From Escherichia coli (lineage in GTDB: Bacteria; Pseudomonadota; Gammaproteobacteria; Enterobacterales; Enterobacteriaceae), in NCBI RefSeq assembly GCF_045037415.1, contig NZ_CP173438.1: a stretch of 64,000 bases of DNA; one strand, written 5' to 3'. The notes under the pieces were generated by a model. That model was not told the DNA's origin. It saw nothing but the letters and a program-made list of their open reading frames with translations, and did not search any database. The position numbers and the translations under genes are program-made. Positions 48,827 to 64,000 of this stretch are shown here, in pieces; the first letter of the stretch is position 1, and each line of letters starts with the position of its first letter.

Positions 48827-48856
48827 GAAAAGCCAACCTGCAGGTTGGCTTTTTTA
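48827..48856 (+). terminator. Intrinsic terminator downstream of fur
   Basis: aaaagccaacctg-caggttggctttttt: perfect hairpin followed by a T-run. Confidence 0.75.
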
Positions 48857-51119: not shown

Positions 51120-52784
51120 TTACTCGCCTACTTTCGCCCAGGTATCACGCAGCCCAACGGTGCGGTTAAATACCGGTTTTTCCGCCGTAGAATGGCGGCT
51201 GTCGAGGCAGAAGTAACCTTCACGCTCAAACTGGAATGCTTTACCCGCAACCGCATCTTTCAGCGACGGTTCAGCAAAGCCCTGTTTGATCACCAGCGAT
51301 TCCGGGTTAATCACCGACAGGAAATCATCCGCAGCACCAGGGTTCGGCACGCTGAACAGACGGTCATACAAACGGATTTCAACCGGCAGCGCATGTGCCG
51401 CGCTCACCCAGTGAATAACACCTTTGACTTTACGACCATCTGCCGGATCTTTGCTTAAGGTGTCGGCGTCATAAGTACAGAAGATGGTGGTGATATTGCC
51501 TTCGGCATCTTTCTCCACGCGTTCTGCCTTAATGACGTAAGCATTACGCAGACGCACTTCTTTACCCAGCACCAGACGTTTGTACTGCTTGTTAGCTTCT
51601 TCGCGGAAATCGGCGCGATCGATCCAAATCTCACCGCTAAATGGCACCTGACGGCTGCCCATTTCCGGTTTATTCGGATGGTTCGGCATGGTAACCATTT
51701 CGCCTTCGCCCTGGTAGTTTTCGATAACCAGTTTCACCGGATCGATAACCGCCATTGCGCGCGGCGCATTTTCGTTGAGATCTTCACGGATGCAGGATTC
51801 CAGTGACGCCATCTCAATGGTGTTGTCCTGCTTGGTCACACCAATGCGTTTGCAGAACTCACGAATAGAAGCCGCAGTGTAACCACGACGACGCAGACCA
51901 GAAATGGTCGGCATACGCGGGTCATCCCAGCCTTCAACGTGCTTGTCGGTCACCAGCAGGTTCAGCTTACGCTTGGACATCACAGTGTATTCCAGATTCA
52001 GGCGCGAGAATTCGTACTGGCGCGGGTGAACAGGAATGGTGATGTTGTCCAGTACCCAGTCGTACAGACGACGGTTGTCCTGGAACTCAAGCGTACACAG
52101 AGAGTGCGTAATACCTTCCAGCGCATCGCTGATGCAGTGGGTGAAGTCGTACATCGGGTAGATGCACCACTTGTTGCCAGTCTGGTGGTGTTCAGCAAAC
52201 TTAATGCGGTACAGCACCGGATCGCGCATCACGATAAACGGCGAAGCCATGTCGATTTTCGCACGCAGGCAGGCTTTACCTTCTTCAAAACCGCCGGTAC
52301 GCATTTTCTCGAACAGCGCCAGGTTCTCTTCAACGCTGCGATCGCGGTACGGGCTGTTTTTACCCGGCTGCGTCAAGGTGCCGCGGTATTCGCGGATCTG
52401 TTCCGGCGTCAGTTCATCAACGTACGCCAGGCCTTTATTGATCAGTTCGATCGCATAGGCGTGGAGCTGATCAAAATAATCGGAGGAGTAACGGACGTTA
52501 CCAGACCAGTGAAAACCTAACCACTCTACGTCGTTTTTGATCGAATCGACATACTCGATATCTTCTTTTACCGGGTTAGTGTCGTCGAAACGCAGGTTGC
52601 ACTGGCCTTTATAGTCCTGGGCGATCCCGAAGTTCAGGCAGATAGATTTCGCATGGCCAATATGCAGATAGCCATTCGGCTCCGGCGGGAAACGGGTGTG
52701 TACTGTGGTGTGCTTACCACTGGCCAGATCTTCATCGATGATCTGACGGATAAAGTTAGTCGGGCGGGCTTCTGCCTCACTCAT
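51120..52784 (-). CDS. glnS: glutaminyl-tRNA synthetase
   Basis: 554 aa; class I HIGH motif ([14 protein letters not shown]) and MSK motif. Confidence 0.97.
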
Positions 52785-53003: not shown

Positions 53004-53765
53004 TTAGTCGGCTATGATTAAACGCGTCGACAAGGACGCAAGCGTTCTACGCGTCTGCCCATCAAGCTGACTATCCGTAATAATCTCTGTCAGTTCATTA
53101 AGATGCGCGATATTAAACAGCGACCATGAACCGTATTTTGAGCTGTCAGCCAGGAGAATTTTGCGCGAAGCATGCGCGATAAGATCGCGTTTTAGTGCGG
53201 CTTTCTCTTCCGTGGGTGCTGTAATACCCTTTTCAAGATCCCAGCTGTTACAGCTTAAAAATGCCACGTCCGGCCAGGTATTTTGCAGCAATTTACGACC
53301 ATGTTCGCCAATGCAGGACTGGCTGGAGTCGTCAATACGTCCGCCGATAATCGTCACTTCAATTTGCTTGAATTCAGCCAAAAAAAGCGCGATATGCAGG
53401 TCGCTTGTGATCACGCGAAGCGGTAAATGTGTAATCTGCCGCGCAAGTTCAATCATTGTCGTACCGGCATCAAGGACGACGGAATCCCCCGCTTTGACCA
53501 TTGACGCCGCTGCGCTGGCGATGGCATGTTTTTCCGCCAGGCTGCGCTGCATTTTCTCATGGGTAGTCGGTTGGGTAGGAATAAACCGGTTGAGAGTCAC
53601 ACCGCCGTGTGTACGGCTGATAACACCCTGCTCATCGAGTTTTATCAGGTCTCGACGAATCGTAGCCGGCGACGCATTGGTTACCGCCACCAGCTCATCT
53701 ACGGTGACCAGATTATGGCTTTTCAGGTAATCCATGATCTGCTCTAACCGGTTATATCCCTTCAT
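53004..53765 (-). CDS. DeoR-family transcriptional regulator
   Basis: 253 aa; N-terminal HTH ([17 protein letters not shown]) and C-terminal sugar-phosphate sensor domain. Confidence 0.85.
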
Positions 53766-53766
53766 T

Positions 53767-54753
53767 TTATTCTCGCGAAATCTGCATTGCTAACTGGATG
53801 GAAACTGCCATGCTCTCAGACTTGGCTTTTCCTGTCCAGGCAATATCAAACGCGGTGCCGTGGTCGGCAGAAGTGCGAATAAATGGCAACCCGGCGGTGA
53901 TATTCACCCCATCATAAAATCCAAGCAGTTTTAAAGGGATATGCCCCTGATCGTGGTACATAGCCACTACCATATCGAATAGCCCTTCATGGCATTGCAT
54001 AAACACGGTATCTGGCGGGCACGGGCCAGTAACATCAATATCTTCGGCCTGCATTGCTTCAATCGCAGGCGCGATAATCTCGATTTCCTCAGTGCCGAAT
54101 AAACCATGTTCCCCTGCATGTGGATTTACACCCGCCACGGCAATACGCGGACGCTCAATACCAACACGTTTCAGGAAGTGGTTCGCAACTCGAATAACCG
54201 TTTTGACCCTTTCACCATTCAAAGTATCCAGGAATTTACGCAGTGAGATGTGAGTCGAAATATGGATAACCTTGAGCTTCTCGGTATAGAGCACCATCGC
54301 GTACTCTTTGCTGCCGGTAAGATGGGCCAGCAATTCCGTATGCCCCGGATAGTTATGCCCGCCAAGATGCAGCGCTTCTTTATTCAGCGGCGCAGTGGCT
54401 ATGGCTTTCACCTCGCCTGATAAGGCCAGAGCCGTTGCACGTTTGATACAGCGATACGCTAAATCGCCTGCCACAGCCTGTACCACTCCGGGTGTCAGCG
54501 CATCGGGGTTAGCCAGCGGCTCATCCATCACGTTAATCACGCCGGGAGCAAAATGGGCGTCGCACACCTTTTGAATGACGCGTAACTCTGCCTGCGGCGT
54601 GATATTCATCGCCATAATACGTCGCAGCGTGCGCACACAGCCCACCACCACCACCGGGGCACCAGCAAGCCCGGCTTCGCTCAGGGATTTAATAATGATC
54701 TCCGGGCCAATACCCGCCGGATCGCCCATCGTTACCGCAATAATATTATTCAC
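53767..54753 (-). CDS. PdxA-family NAD-dependent dehydrogenase (PdxA2-like, 4-phospho-hydroxy-acid oxidative decarboxylase type)
   Basis: 328 aa; [21 protein letters not shown]-terminus typical of PdxA; 8-nt overlap with the upstream kinase. Confidence 0.85.
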
Positions 54754-55984
54754 TACGCTTCTCCTCGATAAAATTCAGAACCTGATGCAACGTGGTCTCA
54801 TCGCCAAACCCACCGGCTTTCGTCATCACCGAACGGGACCAGACGCCGCCCAGAAAGTGACCGTATGGAACGCATTGCGCCACCTTCCCCGTAATACGAA
54901 ATCCGGTCGCGCCTAACGCACTGGCTGTTGCCATTGCGACATCACCACCAGAGAGATAAAGCGCATCGGGCATTGCGCAAAGCAGAACTTGCCGGGTAAG
55001 TTCGCCAAGAAACCGGCAAATTTTTTCCCCAAGTGCAGCGCGACTCATCTGCCAACGCTGGCAAAGGGTGTCGATCTGATGCCTTGCTACAGAATCGTTA
55101 CAGGTGTGGACAATACAGTGGTCGCCTTTCTGCAAGGCCTGCACAATACGCGCGTCATAGTCACTGGCATTGCCTGCCAGAATGTGTTCAACATCGACGT
55201 ATATCTGTGTGATACGTGGGTGTGAATGAAGTGTGGCGATCTGCCGTTGAGCGATTTCGCTCATTGAACCAATAATGGCCAGCACGGTGGGTGGCGGCAT
55301 AATCGCGGAGCGCCGGGCAACGGCATCACAAATACCAGCGGAGCCGACCAGCAGCAGCGGTTGTTTAGCCTGCATCACAGCGGCAGCGATGCGATCCAGG
55401 TCGCTGTCCGTCTGCGCATCTATCACGCCAATCCACGGTTGCTCATAAGACAAATGGCTGAGCTGAGAAACCGTAACGGGCTGGCATGGAATGGCCGTCT
55501 GCAACCGGATGATGTCCGCAATTCGGGCGCTCAATACCGGGGTTTTCGGATCGCTAGCAAACTCGGTTTCCGTTATCCGCACACCGTTTACCCAACACTC
55601 ACCGGCCACTGTGGTCCTTCCCGCCTGAGGAAATGCGGGGGCAACCACTGCGCCCGTTATACCGCATGCCTTCATCAGGGCTTCAATTTCTGCGCCGATA
55701 TTGCCTCGCAGCGTGGAATCTATCTTTTTAATCACGAGCGGCGGGTTATTCGCCAGAGGGAGATGACTCATCAGCGAGGTTATTTTCATCGCCGCCAGCT
55801 TAGGATCCATCGCCCGACTGTCGCTGTTAATCACCCATACGCTGGCATCACCGCGATAAGGCATTTCAAAGGCCACATCAACTGTATGCCCCACCTGCGC
55901 CAGGCTTACCCCCGCGTCGTTGGCTCCCGTGAAATCATCGGCAACGATGAGAATGCTCGGCTTAGTGATTCCCTTTTCCATCAT
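54746..55984 (-). CDS. DUF1537-family four-carbon acid-sugar kinase
   Basis: ORF-track frame to 56023 (TTG); start placed at tandem Met MMEKGITKPSILIVADDFTGANDAG, typical of the family. Confidence 0.8.
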   Translation of the reverse strand: MMEKGITKPSILIVADDFTGANDAGVSLAQVGHTVDVAFEMPYRGDASVWVINSDSRAMDPKLAAMKITSLMSHLPLANNPPLVIKKIDSTLRGNIGAEIEALMKACGITGAVVAPAFPQAGRTTVAGECWVNGVRITETEFASDPKTPVLSARIADIIRLQTAIPCQPVTVSQLSHLSYEQPWIGVIDAQTDSDLDRIAAAVMQAKQPLLLVGSAGICDAVARRSAIMPPPTVLAIIGSMSEIAQRQIATLHSHPRITQIYVDVEHILAGNASDYDARIVQALQKGDHCIVHTCNDSVARHQIDTLCQRWQMSRAALGEKICRFLGELTRQVLLCAMPDALYLSGGDVAMATASALGATGFRITGKVAQCVPYGHFLGGVWSRSVMTKAGGFGDETTLHQVLNFIEEKRSE

Positions 55985-56019
55985 CACTCCAGGTTGTTTT
56001 ATGATAACAATGATTATAT

Positions 56020-56033
56020 TCAATCATGATTGA
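56020..56033. promoter_or_regulatory. Perfect 14-bp palindrome TCAATCA|TGATTGA, candidate operator
   Basis: Located about 35 bp upstream of the kinase start in the divergent intergenic region. Confidence 0.4.
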
Positions 56034-56116
56034 TTAAATGTGAGCAAGCTCAAGTTATTAATCACTCGAATAAATTATAAAATTAGACCATGTTACGTAG
56101 GCTACGGCATTTTGAA

Positions 56117-56132
56117 TGATTGAATTCAATCA
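56117..56132. promoter_or_regulatory. Perfect 16-bp palindrome TGATTGAA|TTCAATCA, candidate operator
   Basis: Same half-site as 56020..56033 in opposite arrangement; about 20 bp upstream of the Fe-ADH start. Confidence 0.4.
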
Positions 56133-56150
56133 CCAGAAGAGAGGTTATTT

Positions 56151-57308
56151 GTGGTAATTATCAATAGCACGATACTGAGCGGCGCAGGCGCTATCCCTTC
56201 CCTGACGTCGCTCTTACCCGACATCAGAAAAATGCTGCTGGTCACTGACCGTAATATTGCGCAGCTCGACGGTGTGCAGCAGATTCGCGCCTTACTGGAA
56301 AAGCACTGCCCGCAGGTTAACGTTATCGATAATGTGCCCGCAGAGCCCACGCATCATGATGTGCGCCAGCTAATGGATGCCCTTGGCGATGCCTCTTTTG
56401 ATGTGGTGGTCGGGATCGGCGGTGGCAGCGTGTTGGATGTGGCGAAGCTGCTATCGGTGCTTTGCCATCCACAATCACCGGGGCTGGATGCGCTGCTTGC
56501 GGGTGAAAAACCGACTCAGCGGGTGCAATCATGGTTGATTCCTACAACCGCCGGAACCGGCTCAGAAGCCACGCCGAATGCGATTCTGGCAATCCCTGAG
56601 CAAAGCACGAAGGTGGGTATTATTTCCCAGGTGCTGTTACCAGACTATGTGGCGCTTTTCCCGGAACTGACCACCAGTATGCCCGCGCATATTGCGGCGT
56701 CCACGGGCATTGATGCTCTTTGCCACTTACTGGAGTGTTTTACCGCGACCGTGGCAAATCCGGTCAGCGATAACGCGGCGCTGACTGGGTTAAGTAAACT
56801 TTTCCGGCACATTCAACCCGCCGTGAACGATCCTCAGGATCTGCGCGCAAAACTGGAAATGCTGTGGGCGTCTTACTATGGCGGCGTAGCGATAACCCAT
56901 GCGGGCACGCATCTCGTTCATGCGCTCTCCTACCCGTTAGGTGGCAAATATCATCTGCCGCATGGCGTCGCGAATGCCATCTTGCTGGCGCCGTGCATGG
57001 CGTTTGTTCGCCCCTGGGCGGTCGAGAAATTTGCCCAGGTCTGGGATTGCATTCCCGATGCGGAAACCGCCCTGAGCGCGGAAGAAAAATCTCATGCCCT
57101 GGTGACCTGGTTACAGGCATTAGTCAATCAACTCAAGCTACCCAACAATCTCGCGGATCTCGGCGTACCGCCAGAGGATATTGCCTCTCTGAGCGAGGCG
57201 GCACTGAACGTGAAGCGCCTTATGAACAATGTGCCGTGCCAGCTTGATCTACAGGACGTACAGGCCATTTACCAAACACTGTTTCCGCAACATCAATTTA
57301 AGGAATAA
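56151..57308 (+). CDS. iron-containing (group III) alcohol dehydrogenase
   Basis: 385 aa; GTG start with GAGAGG Shine-Dalgarno; GGGSVLD and metal-binding His motifs. Confidence 0.85.
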   Translation: MVIINSTILSGAGAIPSLTSLLPDIRKMLLVTDRNIAQLDGVQQIRALLEKHCPQVNVIDNVPAEPTHHDVRQLMDALGDASFDVVVGIGGGSVLDVAKLLSVLCHPQSPGLDALLAGEKPTQRVQSWLIPTTAGTGSEATPNAILAIPEQSTKVGIISQVLLPDYVALFPELTTSMPAHIAASTGIDALCHLLECFTATVANPVSDNAALTGLSKLFRHIQPAVNDPQDLRAKLEMLWASYYGGVAITHAGTHLVHALSYPLGGKYHLPHGVANAILLAPCMAFVRPWAVEKFAQVWDCIPDAETALSAEEKSHALVTWLQALVNQLKLPNNLADLGVPPEDIASLSEAALNVKRLMNNVPCQLDLQDVQAIYQTLFPQHQFKE

Positions 57309-57311
57309 ATC

Positions 57312-58199
57312 ATGCCGAAAACCATTGAAGGTGTATTAACCGCTATCGTCACCCCGTTTACCGCGACCGGCAGTCTGAATATCCCGGCGTTAAAAGTGCA
57401 GGTGAATCGTCAACTGGAAGCGGGTAACGCGATTTTTTGCGGCGGCACCAACGGCGAGTTTTTTGTGTTGAATGAACAGGAGAAGCTCAGCGTTACGCAA
57501 ACCTGCGTGGATGAAGTGGCTGGTCGTGCGCCAGTCGTGGCACACATTGGCGAGATCTCTACGCGCGAAACGATTCGTCTGGGTCAGCAGATTGAAAAAC
57601 TTGGCGTAGATGCCGTGTCGGTCATTGCCCCTTACTTCGTACCGCTGAAACAGGAAGAGTTGATTGCGCATTACAGCGCAATTGCCGACACACTGAGCAT
57701 TCCGATGTTTCTCTATAACATCCCGGCCCGCACTGGCAATACGATCCAGCCAGAAACCGCGCGTGCTCTGGCGTCGCACCCCAATATCATTGGGATTAAA
57801 GACAGCGACGGAAGCGACGAAAGCCTGAAGGGTTTTCTCGATGCGGTGCGCGACATTGACGGCTTTAATGTGCTCAACGGCCCGGATTCGCTGATCCATA
57901 AAGGGTTTGTCGAGGGATGTTCAGCCTGTATCTCTGGGCTCGCCAACGTCGCGCCGCGAGAAATCAATGCCATCTGGTCTCGCTTCCATGCCGGTGATAT
58001 TGAAGGGTCTTATGAAGCACAGGAGAGTGTAACGGGCCTGCGTACCGATCTTTATAAAGTAGCATTCTCCCCGGCTGCGGTGAAAAAAGCGTTGCAGCTT
58101 ATGGGGCATGATGTTGGTGATAGCCGCTACGCGGTTAATTTCACGCCTGAACAGATCAGCGAGATTCAACAAATTATTCGTCATTATAACATTAATTAA
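57312..58199 (+). CDS. DapA/NanA-family class I aldolase (pyruvate-lyase type)
   Basis: 295 aa; GTNGEF motif, Schiff-base lysine in IIGIKDS, Tyr in LYNIP. Confidence 0.85.
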   Translation: MPKTIEGVLTAIVTPFTATGSLNIPALKVQVNRQLEAGNAIFCGGTNGEFFVLNEQEKLSVTQTCVDEVAGRAPVVAHIGEISTRETIRLGQQIEKLGVDAVSVIAPYFVPLKQEELIAHYSAIADTLSIPMFLYNIPARTGNTIQPETARALASHPNIIGIKDSDGSDESLKGFLDAVRDIDGFNVLNGPDSLIHKGFVEGCSACISGLANVAPREINAIWSRFHAGDIEGSYEAQESVTGLRTDLYKVAFSPAAVKKALQLMGHDVGDSRYAVNFTPEQISEIQQIIRHYNIN

Positions 58200-58258
58200 A
58201 TTAACTCTATTATCCAGCCCGCTATAAAGTTTAGATAAAGAGAATAAAGGATTACCCC

Positions 58259-59017
58259 ATGTTTTTGTGGTTTATGCAGCCAGATATCTGGCTCACTTTA
58301 ATTACCCTCACCTTTCTGGAAATTATTCTTGGGGTGGATAATATTATTTTTCTTTCACTGGTGGTGGCAAAACTTCCGTTATCACAACAAAATATGGCGC
58401 GTAAACTGGGTTTAAGCTGCGCGATGATTATGCGGATATTATTGCTGATATCCATTGCGTGGCTTTCACATATTACCCAGCCGCTTTTTACCGTGCTGAC
58501 GCTGGAGATTTCGTTCCGCACGTTGATTCTGCTCGGGGGCGGGCTGTTCCTGATTTATAAAGCGATACAGGAGATACGCGAAGAGCTGTCGCCCGCGCAG
58601 GAAGACGAACATGGCAGCGGATCGCGGCAACTGTCGTTGTGCGGTGCCATTGTACAGATAATGCTGCTCGATATCGTGTTTAGCCTGGATTCGGTGATCA
58701 CCGCCGTCGGCCTTTCTCAGCATATATTTATCATGATTGCCGCCGTAATGATTGCCGTCGGTGTCATGATGTTTGCGGCGAAAACAATTGGTGATTTCGT
58801 TAACGCCACGCCGTCAATAAAAATACTGGCGTTAACCTTTTTATTGTTTGTCGGTGTATTGCTGGTTGCCGATAGTCTCAACATTCATATTGCCAAAGAG
58901 TATCTCTACTTCGCGATATTTTTCTCATTAAGTGTTGAGACACTCAATATTATCCGTGAAAGAAAAAATAAAAAAGTTTCGACATTGATCGAAACGCATG
59001 AATCGCACTCGCATTAA
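58259..59017 (+). CDS. TerC-family integral membrane protein (YgdQ-like)
   Basis: 252 aa; LGVDNIIFLSLVVAKLP and QIMLLDIVFSLDSVITAVGL motifs. Confidence 0.8.
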   Translation: MFLWFMQPDIWLTLITLTFLEIILGVDNIIFLSLVVAKLPLSQQNMARKLGLSCAMIMRILLLISIAWLSHITQPLFTVLTLEISFRTLILLGGGLFLIYKAIQEIREELSPAQEDEHGSGSRQLSLCGAIVQIMLLDIVFSLDSVITAVGLSQHIFIMIAAVMIAVGVMMFAAKTIGDFVNATPSIKILALTFLLFVGVLLVADSLNIHIAKEYLYFAIFFSLSVETLNIIRERKNKKVSTLIETHESHSH

Positions 59018-59052
59018 TAAATCTATTACCAACTTTAAGATGGAGTCTAACT

Positions 59053-60222
59053 ATGTCTGTAGCCCTTATTCGTGACGGCGTCATCCGTCCATCCGAAAAC
59101 GATTCGCATGTGCTTACCGCCATGCTGCCCTCGTCCTGCCCGCAAAACCACGCGGCGAATATTCTGCCTTTGCCGGATGGCGCGTTAATGTGCGTCTGGT
59201 TTGCGGGAACGCAGGAAGGTATTGCCGATATTTCTGTCTGGGGATCGCGATTGCCCGCTGGCGGAATGCAGTGGAGCGATGCGGCCAAACTTTCCCACGA
59301 TGACACGCGTTCAGAGCAAAACCCGGTGCTGTTTCTCGCGCCGGATAACGTGCTGTGGCTCCTATGGACCGCACAAATATCCGGTAATCAGGACACCGCC
59401 ATCGTCCGCTACCGTAAGTCAGACGACCTCGGACAAACCTGGGGCGAGATTGCCACCCTGCTTGATAAACCCGGTACGTTCATTCGACAGCCAATCACGG
59501 TGCTTGATAACGGCAACTGGCTGCTGCCCGTCTTTTATTGCCGTACCCAACCCGGCGAAAAATGGGTCGGCAATGATGATATCAGCGCAGTGAAAATTTC
59601 CGCTGACGGTGGTCACTCCTGGCGCGATGTCGAGGTGCCGCAAAGTCTCGGCTGTGTTCATATGAATATCACAATGTTGCACGACGGTACGTTGGTTGCT
59701 CTCTTTCGCAGCCGTTGGGCAGACAACATCTATATCAGCCATTCAGTGGACAACGGCGAGAGTTGGTCGGTGCCGCAAGCAACCGAATTGCCCAACAACA
59801 ATTCGTCTATTCAGGTAACGACGCTTGCCAGCGGCGAACTGGCGCTGGTGTACAACGCGATGAGTGCGGCAGGCGCAGTAGAACGTCGCGCGTCGCTTTA
59901 TGACGAAATCGACGATGGCGACGACAGCCGCAAAGAACCGACAGCCGTCGGACGCTCCGCTTTCTGGGGTGCCCCACGCGCGCCGATGACGGTAGCGATT
60001 TCTGCCGATGGTGGGAAAAGCTGGTCGTGGCGGCGCAATCTCGATGAAGGCGACGGCTACTGCATGACCAACAATTCCCTGGAAAAGCTAAATCGTGAGT
60101 TCTCCTACCCCAGCATCAAACAAAGCCCGGACGGTACGCTACATATCGCTTACACCTGGTGGCGTCAGGCCATCAAGTACGTACGCATCTCCCCCGAGTG
60201 GGTTAAGGGGCAGGCATCATGA
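59053..60222 (+). CDS. BNR/Asp-box repeat protein, sialidase-like beta-propeller, no signal peptide
   Basis: 389 aa; four Asp-boxes (SDDLGQTW, SADGGHSW, SVDNGESW, SADGGKSW); N-terminus not hydrophobic. Confidence 0.8.
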   Translation: MSVALIRDGVIRPSENDSHVLTAMLPSSCPQNHAANILPLPDGALMCVWFAGTQEGIADISVWGSRLPAGGMQWSDAAKLSHDDTRSEQNPVLFLAPDNVLWLLWTAQISGNQDTAIVRYRKSDDLGQTWGEIATLLDKPGTFIRQPITVLDNGNWLLPVFYCRTQPGEKWVGNDDISAVKISADGGHSWRDVEVPQSLGCVHMNITMLHDGTLVALFRSRWADNIYISHSVDNGESWSVPQATELPNNNSSIQVTTLASGELALVYNAMSAAGAVERRASLYDEIDDGDDSRKEPTAVGRSAFWGAPRAPMTVAISADGGKSWSWRRNLDEGDGYCMTNNSLEKLNREFSYPSIKQSPDGTLHIAYTWWRQAIKYVRISPEWVKGQAS

Positions 60223-60689
60223 TTATCGGTAATCTCAACCATTTGTCGCTGGCGGGGCTTCCTGCCTGGGTGAGAAATATTCTGCTGCGCCCGGAGTGTT
60301 CGTTATCGGCGTTATCCACCAGAGAGGACGGTCGCTGGCAACCTGAAGGATGTCGGTGGTTCTGCTCGCTGGGAACTTCAGACACGCAACCCGCCGAACT
60401 TCGCCATACGGAGTATCACCATCTATGGGCCGATATACAGGTGGTGATTACTGGTTGTGAGGGCATTAATGCGGGAACGCGGCCCATCGCTCGCGAAAAC
60501 GATGAAGAACGTAAGCCCGATCTGTTTATCGCCCCATCCCCTGAAAACAGTGTCGCCATCACCCTACACGCCGGTGATTTCGCCGTCTTTATGCCTGAGG
60601 AACCTCACCAGGCACTGTGCGCAATTGGCACGGCTACTTCAATACGCAAAGCGGTCTTTAAAGTACCGCGCGACATGCTGGAAGCCTAA
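60219..60689 (+). CDS. YhcH/YjgK/YiaL-family (DUF386) protein
   Basis: 156 aa; ATGA start/stop overlap with the BNR gene. Confidence 0.75.
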   Translation: MIIGNLNHLSLAGLPAWVRNILLRPECSLSALSTREDGRWQPEGCRWFCSLGTSDTQPAELRHTEYHHLWADIQVVITGCEGINAGTRPIARENDEERKPDLFIAPSPENSVAITLHAGDFAVFMPEEPHQALCAIGTATSIRKAVFKVPRDMLEA

Positions 60690-60702
60690 AAGGAGAGAAA
60701 AA

Positions 60703-61983
60703 ATGACAATGGAAATGATCCTGGCATTAGGAATACTGGTCCTGATGATCGTGCTGATCATGTCGGACAAAATGCCTTTTGGCGCACCGCCACTGCTTGC
60801 GTGTTTATTGCTGGTTGTATCGGGACTTTCGACCGTTCAACAGGCTTTTGCCGGATTCGTCAATCCAAGCGTGGTGATGATTGCAGGGTTTATGGTGGTC
60901 ATGGCGGCGCTACAAAAAACCCGGCTTATCAGCAACGTTAAATCTGCGATGATAAGCCTGGTCAATAAAGGCAGTTACCGCAGCTATGGGCTGTTATTAG
61001 TCATTGTTATGCTGGGTGCCAGTCTTGCCGGCACCGGAGCGACCGGTTATTACGTGCTAATTCTGTCGCTGGTATCCACCATTCCGTACAGTAAAAAGCT
61101 ACCAACATCGAAATTAATGATGCCCCTGGGATTTGCCACCAACCACCCGCTTCTTCCTATCAATCTCGCGCTTCTCTTTGGCGTTACGGCGACCGTACTC
61201 GAAACCGCGGGGTTTCATCAGGCGATTTCGATGGGGCGCTTTGCGCTGGTGAATCTCATCATGTCAGCGGCTTTCCTCGCATGGAGTCTTATTGCCTACC
61301 GTTTTCTTCCGGATCATCCCATTGCGGATGCTTCCGAGGATGCGCTGGCGGCACGCGAGGAAACGTTTAACGCCCTTCCTGCCTGGAAAGAATATTGCAC
61401 TATTGCCGCATTCGCTGTCAGCGTTATCGGCATGATGCTAATGAACATTCTGGGAAATATCGCCTTCGTTATTCCGGGTCTTGCGGGTGCGTTTGTTCTG
61501 ATGATCGATGTACTGGACTTCAAAGAAGTTCGCGATCATATGGGGGCTCCGGTCATTTTAATGATGGCGGGGGTGATCGGTGTAGCTGATGCACTGGCGG
61601 GCACCGGCTTTACGGCGATGGTTGGCGATGCCGTTGCAGGTGTGCTCGGTTCTGGCGTCTCACCGTTTGTATTTATTGTCGCCTTTGCTTTGCTTACCAG
61701 TACCTGCGCCACCTTCACGGGTTCGAATATGGGGTCAGTATATATTTTTGCCCCCATCGCCATTGCCGCCTGTACTAGCCTTGGGCTTAACCCGACCGCT
61801 GCCGCGATTGCGGTGGTGATTTCTGGCTGGAATGGCGGCTATATGCCTATTGACGGAATGCCAGCCATGATCCTCGGAATGGGGAAATACAAACTTCCCG
61901 AATTCTGGGTGTTCTCTGTACCAATGTATCTCATCCGCATTCTGGCGCTTTGTGCAGGCGCTGTTTTTATCTTCCCAATGTAA
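60703..61983 (+). CDS. polytopic permease, ion-transporter superfamily (DASS/CitMHS-like), substrate unknown
   Basis: ORF-track frame from 60457 overlaps upstream genes; start placed at ATG 60703 (MTMEMILALGILVL) after AAGGAGAG Shine-Dalgarno. Confidence 0.75.
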   Translation: MTMEMILALGILVLMIVLIMSDKMPFGAPPLLACLLLVVSGLSTVQQAFAGFVNPSVVMIAGFMVVMAALQKTRLISNVKSAMISLVNKGSYRSYGLLLVIVMLGASLAGTGATGYYVLILSLVSTIPYSKKLPTSKLMMPLGFATNHPLLPINLALLFGVTATVLETAGFHQAISMGRFALVNLIMSAAFLAWSLIAYRFLPDHPIADASEDALAAREETFNALPAWKEYCTIAAFAVSVIGMMLMNILGNIAFVIPGLAGAFVLMIDVLDFKEVRDHMGAPVILMMAGVIGVADALAGTGFTAMVGDAVAGVLGSGVSPFVFIVAFALLTSTCATFTGSNMGSVYIFAPIAIAACTSLGLNPTAAAIAVVISGWNGGYMPIDGMPAMILGMGKYKLPEFWVFSVPMYLIRILALCAGAVFIFPM

Positions 61984-62071: not shown

Positions 62072-64000
62072 TTACTTTTTGATTTCATACAGCGGTGTTT
62101 GACCCGCCACAACATGGCCCTGAGCTTTAATGATAAGGCCGCTGAAATCATCGATATTGCTGCAAACCACCGGGCTAATCATCGAACGGGCGTTAGCGTT
62201 CAGGTAATCCAGATCCATTTCCAGAATCGGTTGCCCTGCGCTTACCTGCGCGCCCTCTTCCACCAGACGTTTAAAGCCTTTACCTTCCAGCGCTACGGTG
62301 TCGATACCCATATGGACGACGATCTCCGCGCCTTTTTCGGTTTCCAGACAGAACGCGTGGTTGGTGTTGAAGATTTTCACGATTGTTCCTGCGGCTGGTG
62401 ATACGACGATTTTATCTGTCGGTTTCACCGCCACACCGTCACCCACCGCTTTGCTGGCGAATGCTTCGTCAGGAATCTGATCCAGTGCCACAACATCCCC
62501 GGTAATCGGCGATACCAGCTCCGCGATAGATACCGCGTTTGGTACAGCCTGCGGTTTTGCTACAGGAGCGGCAGTTGCCGGAGTTGCTTCAGCTGACGCA
62601 GCGGCTACCGGACCACGGGCAACGACTTTCTTCATCGCATCGCCGATGGATTCTGCTTTCGCGCCAACAATCACCTGAATAGTCTGTTTGTTCAGTTTTA
62701 CTACCCCAGAAGCACCCAGACGTTTACACATCGCATCGTTGACGCGAGCTGAGTCAACCACGGTAAGGCGCAGACGAGTAATACAGGCGTCAATGGCTTT
62801 CAGGTTGTCAGTACCGCCAACCGCAGCAATATAGTTGGTTGCCAGTTGATTGAGACCTTCTTCAGTATTGCTGTTAGCCTCTTCAGTAACGATCTCGTCT
62901 TCTTTATCTTCACGACCCGGCGTTTTCAGGTTGAACATGCGGATAACCAAACTGAACACCACGAAGTAGATAGCGAAGAAGACAACCCCCATCACCAGCA
63001 GCATCCAGACGTTCTGGCTGGCGGCCGGCAGGTTATACATCAACGCGTAGTCGATAGCCCCCGCAGAGAAAGAGAAGCCGGCATGGATACCCAGCAACGT
63101 TGCCACAAACAGGCTGATACCGGTCAGCAGTGCGTGCAGGAGGTACAGCAGCGGTGCAAGGAACATGAACAGGAATTCCAGCGGCTCAGTCACACCGGTC
63201 AGGAACGCAGTAACAGCAACAGAAAGCAGCATCCCGCCAACCATCGGACGACGCTCTTTCGGTGCTGCGAAGTACATCGCCAGCGCCGCACCCGGCAGGC
63301 CGAACATCATAATCGGGAAGAAGCCGGACATGAACATCCCCGCGGTGCCGTCACCGGCATAGAAGCGGTTGATATCACCGTGGAAAACCGTTCCCGCCGC
63401 GTTGGTGAATTCACCAATCTGGAACCAGGCGATGGTGTTCAGCACCTGATGCAGACCGGTTGGGATCAGCAGACGGTTGATGAAACCAAAGATACCGGAA
63501 CCCAGCGCGCCCGCAGAAACGATCCACTCGCCGCCTGCATGGATAGCGTGCTGTACCGGTGGCCAGACGTAACCAAAAATGGCCGCCAGCACCAGACAGA
63601 AGAAGCCGGTGGCTATCGGCACAAAGCGTTTGCCGCCGAAGAAGCTCAGGAAGTCCGGCAGTTTAATATCGGACCAACGGTTATAGGCTGCGCCACCAAC
63701 CAGACCGGTAATGATACCCGCCAGTACACCCATGTTAATTTCTGGGTTGATGGTCACCATCGCTTTGGTTAACACAAAGTAACCTACCGCACCCGCCAGT
63801 GCCGCCGCACCTGCGCTGTCTTTCGACCAGCTGGATGCCACGCCGATGGCGAATATTAATGCGAGGTTATCAAAAATCGCACCGCCCGCCTGGGCAATAA
63901 ACGCAACGTTAAGTAAATCTGGCTGACCGAATCGCAGCAACAGCGCCGCCACCGGCAGCACCGCGATAGGGAGCTGTAACGCCCTACCGAGTCGCTGGAA
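62072..64000 (-). CDS. nagE: PTS N-acetylglucosamine-specific EIICBA, partial (5' end beyond window end)
   Basis: ORF-track protein begins within the N-terminal region (LPVAALLLRFGQPDLLNVAF...); frame stays open to the window edge. Confidence 0.95.
   Translation of the reverse strand, partial: FQRLGRALQLPIAVLPVAALLLRFGQPDLLNVAFIAQAGGAIFDNLALIFAIGVASSWSKDSAGAAALAGAVGYFVLTKAMVTINPEINMGVLAGIITGLVGGAAYNRWSDIKLPDFLSFFGGKRFVPIATGFFCLVLAAIFGYVWPPVQHAIHAGGEWIVSAGALGSGIFGFINRLLIPTGLHQVLNTIAWFQIGEFTNAAGTVFHGDINRFYAGDGTAGMFMSGFFPIMMFGLPGAALAMYFAAPKERRPMVGGMLLSVAVTAFLTGVTEPLEFLFMFLAPLLYLLHALLTGISLFVATLLGIHAGFSFSAGAIDYALMYNLPAASQNVWMLLVMGVVFFAIYFVVFSLVIRMFNLKTPGREDKEDEIVTEEANSNTEEGLNQLATNYIAAVGGTDNLKAIDACITRLRLTVVDSARVNDAMCKRLGASGVVKLNKQTIQVIVGAKAESIGDAMKKVVARGPVAAASAEATPATAAPVAKPQAVPNAVSIAELVSPITGDVVALDQIPDEAFASKAVGDGVAVKPTDKIVVSPAAGTIVKIFNTNHAFCLETEKGAEIVVHMGIDTVALEGKGFKRLVEEGAQVSAGQPILEMDLDYLNANARSMISPVVCSNIDDFSGLIIKAQGHVVAGQTPLYEIKK

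Follow-up and report, generated by a model that had tools for sequence, protein, structure and literature searches.

We have found that the spacer between the two divergent operons of an accessory Escherichia coli island carries a pair of 16-bp inverted repeats, O1 and O2, that have kept their positions in about 45 species. We put at about 75% the probability that these repeats are the operator pair of the DeoR-family protein encoded by the island, acting as a repressor, and that they operate together with one shared CRP site in a divergent control region. Viewed in this light, the regulator/operator system adds a new and uncharacterised example to a familiar class. All coordinates refer to the 64,000-nucleotide stretch of DNA that was analysed, which we call the window.

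The island is inserted in the E. coli chromosome between glnS (51120-52784) and nagE (from 62072). It is found in 1,047 of 5,426 complete E. coli genomes, each time as a single copy and each time on the chromosome. A comparative genomics study of 2026 includes it as 'GR 6 nagE..glnS' in ExPEC and AIEC strains, with no function assigned (PMC12928451), and beyond this 'GR 6' listing a literature search returned no paper on the regulation or function of the cluster. In the RefSeq annotation the leftward operon has the order dtnK-pdxA2-deoR and diverges from an operon that starts with an iron-containing alcohol dehydrogenase gene (Fe-ADH) and continues with genes for a DHDPS-family aldolase, TerC, a BNR/sialidase-family protein, a YhcH/NanQ-like protein and an SLC13/DASS permease. 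The PdxA2-like enzyme and DtnK both score above their NCBIfam equivalog cutoffs (679 vs 583 bits; 531 vs 450 bits). RefSeq annotates no second regulator gene inside the island. The spacer between the operons measures 169 bp (55982-56150), because the RefSeq dtnK ATG is at 55981, and not 127 bp as first stated; the shorter figure apparently came from a mechanical TTG ORF start at 56023. The ATG at 55981, which is preceded by GGAG, is the start conserved in other species. The features discussed below are collected in Table 1.

Table 1. Genes of the island and observed or predicted sites in its divergent control region, in window coordinates.
Feature	Position	Strand	Basis or remark
DeoR/GlpR-family regulator gene, 253 aa	53004-53765	-	RefSeq; last gene of the dtnK operon
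pdxA2-like D-threonate-4-phosphate dehydrogenase	53767-54753	-	RefSeq and NCBIfam equivalog
dtnK, D-threonate kinase	54746-55981	-	RefSeq and NCBIfam equivalog; ATG at 55981
O1, 16-bp imperfect inverted repeat TGATTATATTCAATCA	56011-56026		14/16 matches to O2; proposed primary operator
Predicted -10 of dtnK-pdxA2-deoR, TATAAT	56013-56018	-	Inside O1; predicted TSS ~56005-56006
Third half-site, TGATTAA	56031-56037	+	Within the invariant TTGATTA(A) at 56030-56037; columns at least 95% conserved
CRP-like site AAATGTGAGCAAGCTCAAGTTA	56036-56057, centre 56046.5		16/22 to the CRP consensus
Predicted -10 of Fe-ADH, TATAAA (56076-81) or TAAAAT (56078-83)	56076-56083	+	Predicted TSS ~56088-56090
O2, perfect 16-bp palindrome TGATTGAATTCAATCA	56117-56132		Predicted 5' UTR of the Fe-ADH operon; 106 bp from O1
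Iron-containing alcohol dehydrogenase (Fe-ADH)	56151-57308	+	RefSeq; GTG start
Rightward operon	56151-61983	+	RefSeq annotation; NCBIfam; Pfam in the Aeromonas copy

The original prediction described two perfect palindromes in the spacer. Both are present: the 14-mer TCAATCATGATTGA (TCAATCA|TGATTGA) at 56020-56033, and the 16-mer TGATTGAATTCAATCA (TGATTGAA|TTCAATCA), which is O2. They had been placed 20-35 bp upstream of the respective start codons; this describes O2, which lies 19-34 bp before the Fe-ADH GTG at 56151, and does not describe the 14-mer, which lies 39-52 bp before the dtnK ATG. The accompanying statement that such a pair is unlikely by chance is borne out by dinucleotide-preserving shuffles of the 31%-GC spacer, 62 of 200,000 of which (~3e-4) held two or more palindromes of at least 14 bp, a shared half-site not being demanded; at least one such palindrome arose in 2.3% of the shuffles. 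In the entire 64-kb window there are just five perfect palindromes of 14 bp or longer, two of them in the island spacer. Elsewhere, fur and chiQ, which are convergent, are separated by a 26-bp perfect palindrome, AAAAGCCAACCTGCAGGTTGGCTTTT, at 48828-48853 that has the look of an intrinsic terminator working in both directions. Two further perfect 16-bp palindromes, at 58278-58293 (AGCCAGATATCTGGCT, where the TerC gene begins) and at 63402-63417 (TTGGTGAATTCACCAA, inside nagE), are unrelated in sequence to the operator motif.

The 14-mer is nevertheless not the functional unit that it had been taken for. Its half-sites and those of O2 have opposite geometry (everted with no spacing in the 14-mer, inverted around two base pairs in O2), and so one dimer would be unable to read both palindromes in the same way. 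Moreover, its centre, 56027-29, varies both between species (TGA, CAA, CAT, CGT, TAA and others in the intergenic alignment) and among E. coli strains, in which it is TGA, CAA (UPEC 536, clone D i14) or CGA (GPT24-02) with O1 intact throughout. On account of this variation we rejected the 14-mer as a genuine operator. Its left arm doubles as the right arm of O1, the only part that the two have in common, and its right arm is made up of the variable trinucleotide and the start of a separate conserved block, TTGATTA. Judged by this alignment, the 14-mer is a strain- or lineage-level coincidence, an artefact of the junction between two conserved elements.

The unit that footprinting identifies as conserved is a 16-bp inverted repeat, TGATTGA-N2-TCAATCA, with the core TGATT-N6-AATCA. 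O1 is the only other close match to the 16-mer in the window (two mismatches), against a chance expectation of 0.38 matches per window with three or fewer mismatches. A search with the regulator protein yielded 53 loci from other species, and the footprint alignment comprised 47 distinct intergenic sequences from ~47 species. The divergent arrangement is kept in about 45 Enterobacterales species and in Vibrio litoralis. A search for the motif upstream of homologous clusters, which had been suggested as a check, located it at both of these places in the spacers of about 45 Enterobacterales species. Within the alignment the near-invariant blocks are O1, TTGATTA, the CRP-like site and a -10 block; O2 is kept in position, and the sequence between these elements is variable. 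O1 itself shows no change in 44 of 46 orthologous loci (conservation of 95% or more in its columns), is invariant in divergent E. coli strains and is identical in Aeromonas. The notion that the palindromes are functionless chance products of AT-rich DNA can draw on the 31% GC content of the spacer, on the commonness of short AT-rich palindromes, on the 2.3% of shuffles with at least one of them and on the lack of conservation of the 14-mer. Set against the rarity of two palindromes in the shuffles (3e-4), and against 16-mers whose sequence and placement have been kept by about 45 species while their neighbours vary, we consider it extremely improbable. On this comparative evidence chance is refuted for O1 and O2 and holds only for the 'perfection' of the 14-mer.

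A position weight matrix (PWM) of the motif, which had taken in the TGAGCG variant of O2, gave 92 hits scoring 14 bits or more within 8.1 kb of intergenic sequence vs 72 in the other 668 kb of the loci, and nearly all of the latter fall at two fixed coding positions. In the window these motif-like 16-mers are at 55248-55263 in dtnK (TGAGCGATTTCGCTCA) and at 53365-53380 in the regulator gene (TGCTTGAATTCAGCCA), and they occur in the same places in many species. The segment coding for the helix-turn-helix (HTH) in other species also holds a motif-like 16-mer, where synonymous positions vary freely, and the variants of the dtnK site differ at what by eye appear to be third-codon positions. Since these positions vary, coding constraint is the likeliest explanation, and a role of the two sites as weak auxiliary operators is the less likely one.

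O2 is less constrained than O1. Its consensus over about 45 species is TGA(TT/GC)(G/A)A(A/T)(A/T)T(C/T)AATCA, and it is perfectly palindromic only in E. coli, Pseudocitrobacter and Mangrovibacter. The half closest to the Fe-ADH gene is the best conserved and the distal half is poorly conserved (TGAGCG in Enterobacter). In one Klebsiella species O2 has decayed; the Klebsiella form TGATTAAATTTAATCA carries symmetric double substitutions that preserve the dyad. The location of O2 in the predicted 5' UTR near the Shine-Dalgarno sequence, and a perfect palindrome that would allow a 6-bp hairpin, could suggest that O2 (and possibly the other palindrome) works in RNA, as a hairpin affecting stability or translation. 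This is scarcely credible: folding of the predicted UTR does not exceed that of its shuffled versions (z = -0.02), about 20 of the 46 loci have asymmetric O2 variants (TGAGCGAAATCAATCA) in which three stem pairs are broken, O1 is imperfect, and in Actinobacillus the motif is found also at positions that are not transcribed. We rejected the hairpin on the folding score and the stem-breaking variants.

In 45 of the 46 Enterobacterales loci O1 and O2 lie 103-106 bp apart, even though the segment that separates them has indels. This corresponds to ~10 helical turns, a gap within the reach of an oligomeric repressor. The distance is shorter in the other groups, with 92 bp in Vibrio, 93 bp in Aeromonas (~8.8 turns) and 18 bp in Actinobacillus, implying that strict helical phasing or looping is not universal. 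Next to O1, the additional half-site TGATTAA forms a direct repeat of the left half of O1, 20 bp away, and abuts the CRP-like site. The TTGATTA block to which it belongs is also present in Vibrio and Aeromonas, and in Actinobacillus a full second 16-mer is found there.

The original prediction did not include an invariant CRP-like site that lies halfway between the predicted promoters. It has the top score in the whole 64-kb window, its element TGTGAGCAAGnTCAA is invariant across species, and its counterpart in Actinobacillus is TGTGACGAAGATCACG. On the dtnK side, the two departures of O1 from a perfect palindrome are the positions that create a perfect TATAAT on the minus strand. The TSS predicted from this hexamer places the CRP centre at -40.5 to -41.5 and gives a leader of ~25 nt with GGAG. 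On the Fe-ADH side, the block ATAAATTATAAA(A/T)TT at 56070-84 is conserved and, where it diverges, a plus-strand hexamer persists (CCTATAAATT in Erwinia/Pantoea, TAGAAT in Superficieibacter, TAAAAT in Aeromonas). The candidate -10 hexamers on the two sides lie 28.5 and 29.5 bp from the CRP centre, distances in keeping with -40.5 to -41.5, and this centre falls at -41.5 to -43.5 relative to the predicted Fe-ADH TSS. A simple sigma-70 scan of 55900-56250 found no -35/-10 pair, and so the predicted promoters are placed by -10 hexamers and CRP geometry; class II CRP-dependent promoters would account for the empty scan. A dual constraint on O1, as operator and as -10 element, would explain why it is far more constrained than O2, and its near-invariance could be owed as much to the -10 element as to repressor binding.

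These positions bear on the original prediction that a bound repressor would occlude both promoters. This remains plausible for dtnK, whose predicted -10 lies inside O1. It does not fit the other side: O2 is at ~+28 to +45, downstream of the predicted Fe-ADH promoter, and would thus act as a roadblock or in a loop and not by occlusion.

The regulator has the two domains of its family in both the identical protein and its orthologues (Pfam), an N-terminal HTH_DeoR (PF08220) and a C-terminal DeoRC sugar-phosphate sensor (PF00455). It aligns over its full length to NCBIfam models of the family and matches the DeoR C-terminal domain structure 7l6l in the PDB with E = 6e-9. It falls below every NCBIfam equivalog cutoff with which it was compared (AgaR, GlpR, YgbI, SrlR, UlaR, FucR, YciT and DeoR): the best model is AgaR (172 bits, cutoff 260), with YgbI at 168 (cutoff 400) and DeoR at 83 (cutoff 244), and it scores 168 bits (cutoff 300) with the haloarchaeal GlpR model NF041397 and 99 bits (cutoff 331) with the enterobacterial DeoR/GlpR-family model PRK10906. 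The 16-residue HTH segment is essentially invariant in all orthologues; the conserved residues TIRRDL within it are family-wide and not specific.

The best 120 relatives of the regulator all have at least 74% identity, and hence it is the loci of Vibrio, Aeromonas and Actinobacillus that supply the evidence from further afield. The motif accompanies the regulator gene into all three genera, and thus across four orders, with regulator identities of 68% in Vibrio, 79% in Aeromonas and 66% in Actinobacillus porcinus; Vibrio and Aeromonas have the same synteny. In Aeromonas enteropelogenes O1 is unchanged, the TGATTAA half-site, the CRP-like site and a TAAAAT hexamer are all present, and O2 is degenerate. 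In this species the whole island (locus L060, 7249-12792), with its identical O1, adjoins genes of mobile-element type (CbeA antitoxin, RadC and many small ORFs), a context that suggests that the regulator-operator-operon module spreads horizontally as a single unit. In A. porcinus the regulator is part of a different operon, with pdxA, KdgT-like transporters and a DUF1537 kinase and without aldolase, ADH or sialidase genes; upstream are tandem 16-mers, TGATTAAAAATAATCA-TT-TGATTATAAAAAATCA, followed by the CRP site and a -10. The makeup of this operon indicates that the DUF1537 kinase and PdxA are the constant companions of regulator and motif, which in turn points to a phospho-tetronate as the signal. 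A short ORF preceding pdxA in the A. porcinus locus (L053, 2143-2390) encodes the N-terminal ~80 residues of a DUF1537 kinase (MELLIIADDFTGANDTG...); a full-length DUF1537 kinase gene lies further down the same operon, and the short ORF may be a gene remnant.

The proposal that the neighbouring DeoR-family protein is the binder is favoured by the conservation of the motif, by its co-occurrence with the regulator gene and by the classical DeoR operator architecture of the sites, which make this protein the probable ligand of O1 and O2. An alternative is that the 16-mers are bound by another, global or unlinked, factor and that the DeoR-family protein binds elsewhere. Protein and sites are connected here by inference, the conserved TIRRDL residues are common to the whole family, and the AT-rich motif vaguely resembles iron-box half-sites. 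Nevertheless, we judge another factor unlikely, given that motif and regulator gene are found together in four orders, even in the differently composed Actinobacillus operon, that the island has no other regulator gene, and that the layout of the sites is that of the operator defined by experiment for the family's namesake. The Fur match is unexceptional and falls in non-conserved columns: the best candidate Fur box, at 56000-56021, matches GATAATGATAATCATTATC at 13 of 19 positions, 33 sites in the window score equally, and we rejected it. The fur gene lies ~7 kb from this AT-rich stretch upstream of O1, a proximity that appears coincidental.

The DeoR-family protein might also bind these sites as an activator or dual regulator, in the manner of FucR. 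FucR is a DeoR-family activator, and most characterised members of the family are repressors. The existence of activators in the family, the 101 bits that the island regulator scores with the FucR model and the tandem sites of Actinobacillus, which lie upstream of the CRP site and promoter in an activation-compatible position, are consistent with such a role. The positions in the Enterobacterales are instead of repressor type, O1 holding the predicted dtnK -10 and O2 lying downstream of the predicted Fe-ADH TSS, and the characterised repressors include the best scorers AgaR, GlpR, YgbI and SrlR. We therefore regard activation as improbable and retain repression through O1 and O2 as the preferred reading.

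In the mechanism that we infer from the sequence, which extends to the identity of the binder, repression as opposed to activation, the promoter and TSS positions, the role of CRP, looping and the effector, the 169-bp spacer would be the shared control region of the dtnK-pdxA2-deoR and Fe-ADH operons. The island DeoR-family protein would be a repressor that recognises the 16-bp inverted repeat TGATTGA-N2-TCAATCA. Bound to O1 it would exclude RNA polymerase from the dtnK -10 and, as the regulator gene is the last of the dtnK operon, the operon would be autoregulated. O2, in the early transcribed region of the rightward operon, would be either a roadblock or the second anchor of a ~105 bp loop, which could form if an oligomeric repressor bridged O1 and O2 and would enclose the CRP site together with the rightward promoter. 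The single CRP site, ~41 bp from both predicted starts, could activate both promoters as class II promoters, and repressor at the extra TGATTAA half-site that abuts it may interfere with CRP. Sugar-phosphate effectors are typical of the DeoR family, and a phosphorylated intermediate of the pathway, for example 4-phospho-D-threonate, is the probable inducer.

The island gene set comprises a permease, a NanQ-like protein, a cytoplasmic BNR/sialidase-like protein, a NanA-like aldolase, the Fe-ADH, D-threonate kinase and D-threonate-4-phosphate dehydrogenase. Such a set suggests a route by which an ulosonic or 2-keto-3-deoxy sugar acid would be converted to D-threonate and then to DHAP. The rare acidic sugar 3-deoxy-D-lyxo-heptulosaric acid (DHA) is a constituent of the pectin rhamnogalacturonan-II. 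We raise as a speculative possibility, which we would not favour at present, that the operators and regulator form the switch, within a compact control region, of an undescribed catabolic pathway that ends in D-threonate and for which DHA is a candidate substrate. In this scheme the NanQ-like protein would open the DHA ring and the DHDPS-family aldolase would yield pyruvate and a four-carbon aldehyde-acid. Reduction of the latter to D-threonate would fall to the Fe-ADH, which has semialdehyde reductases among its closest models; DtnK would phosphorylate the D-threonate, and the PdxA2-like enzyme would convert the product to DHAP and CO2. The inducer in this scheme, 4-phospho-D-threonate, would free O1 and O2 of the repressor. 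By stereochemistry worked out by hand, the D-lyxo configuration of DHA would give a D-threo product. A literature search for bacterial DHA catabolism found none. If the scheme is true, the design would be unusually compact: two divergent class II promoters would share a single CRP dimer, all within a repression loop of 10 turns.

The transport genes differ between lineages. TerC (58259-59017) is found in E. coli, Pseudocitrobacter, Klebsiella and Kluyvera, and the SLC13/DASS permease (60703-61983) at least in E. coli. The Enterobacter soli locus (L005), the single other locus inspected, has an SSS-family sodium/solute symporter (1092-2504) flanked by the genes for the sialidase-like protein and the aldolase; in most other Enterobacterales there is a similarly sized gap in the same place. 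It appears that one transporter module of the island has been exchanged for another. A dicarboxylate substrate, as suggested by the SLC13 permease, is weakened as a candidate by the SSS-family symporter that most other species, to go by the size of this gap, carry.

The mechanism proposed here is a conventional DeoR-type repressor/operator arrangement, and the value of the analysis lies not in a new principle but in annotation and in a handle on an orphan pathway. The island is carried by about a fifth of complete E. coli genomes, among them ExPEC and AIEC model strains, and by many plant- and gut-associated Enterobacterales. The operator motif, the candidate repressor and the predicted CRP-dependent divergent promoters provide handles on this orphan catabolic island: they could be used in a reporter screen for the inducing nutrient and in a PWM hunt for further members of the regulon, and the site positions are testable predictions.

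Several well-studied systems resemble the island control region in part. At the divergent glpTQ-glpACB promoters of E. coli, GlpR acts through several operators in a short intergenic region with CRP sites, and its inducer is glycerol-3-phosphate. The island shares with this system a DeoR-family regulator and, by prediction, several operators in a short divergent region, CRP and a phosphorylated inducer. It differs in having a single, central CRP site and in its operator sequence, GlpR having another consensus. In the GalR OE-OI loop of the gal operon, operators roughly 10-11 turns apart bracket CRP-dependent promoters, and one of them is downstream of the start. The operator spacing is comparable to that of the island, where CRP-dependent promoters are likewise predicted between the operators and one operator is downstream of the predicted start. 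GalR is, in contrast, a LacI-family protein and needs HU, and looping in the island is a suggestion drawn from the spacing.

YgbI of E. coli K-12 is like the island regulator a DeoR-type protein encoded beside a cluster for a four-carbon acid-sugar kinase of the DUF1537 family (ygbJK, a tetronate kinase cluster), and the two share 32.5% identity (PMC12928451). The YgbI model is among the best-scoring for the island protein, at 168 bits, but this is far below its cutoff of 400, and the partner enzymes are OtnK and its associates in one case and DtnK/PdxA2 in the other.

A close architectural parallel can be drawn with the family's namesake. E. coli DeoR has the same domain composition (HTH_DeoR and DeoRC) and, as is proposed for the island regulator, acts through several operators around promoters, one of which overlaps a -10, with CRP acting too. 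The deo control region of K-12 carries TGTTAGAATTCTAACA and TGTTAGAATACTAACA, which we located in the K-12 sequence 599 bp apart; these are quoted, in hyphenated form, as DeoR palindromes, with repression by looping and deoxyribose-5-phosphate as the inducer (PMC5326754). The deo operators, named O1, O2 and OE in that system (TGTTAGAA-TTCTAACA), are, like the O2 of the island, 16-bp dyads with an AATT/AATA centre, and 12 of the 16 positions are common to both (TG.T.GAATTC.A.CA). O1 and O2 fit this layout of a 16-bp inverted repeat with 7-bp arms and a 2-bp centre (O2 perfectly, O1 at 14/16). The recognition sequence of deoO is nonetheless not matched by the island sites, the half-sites TGTTAGA and TGATTGA differing at two of seven positions in each arm, and the island regulator is no DeoR orthologue (83 bits vs a cutoff of 244). 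The island operators are also far closer together, at ~105 bp vs 599 bp, and their predicted targets belong to sugar-acid catabolism, whereas those of deo belong to nucleoside catabolism.
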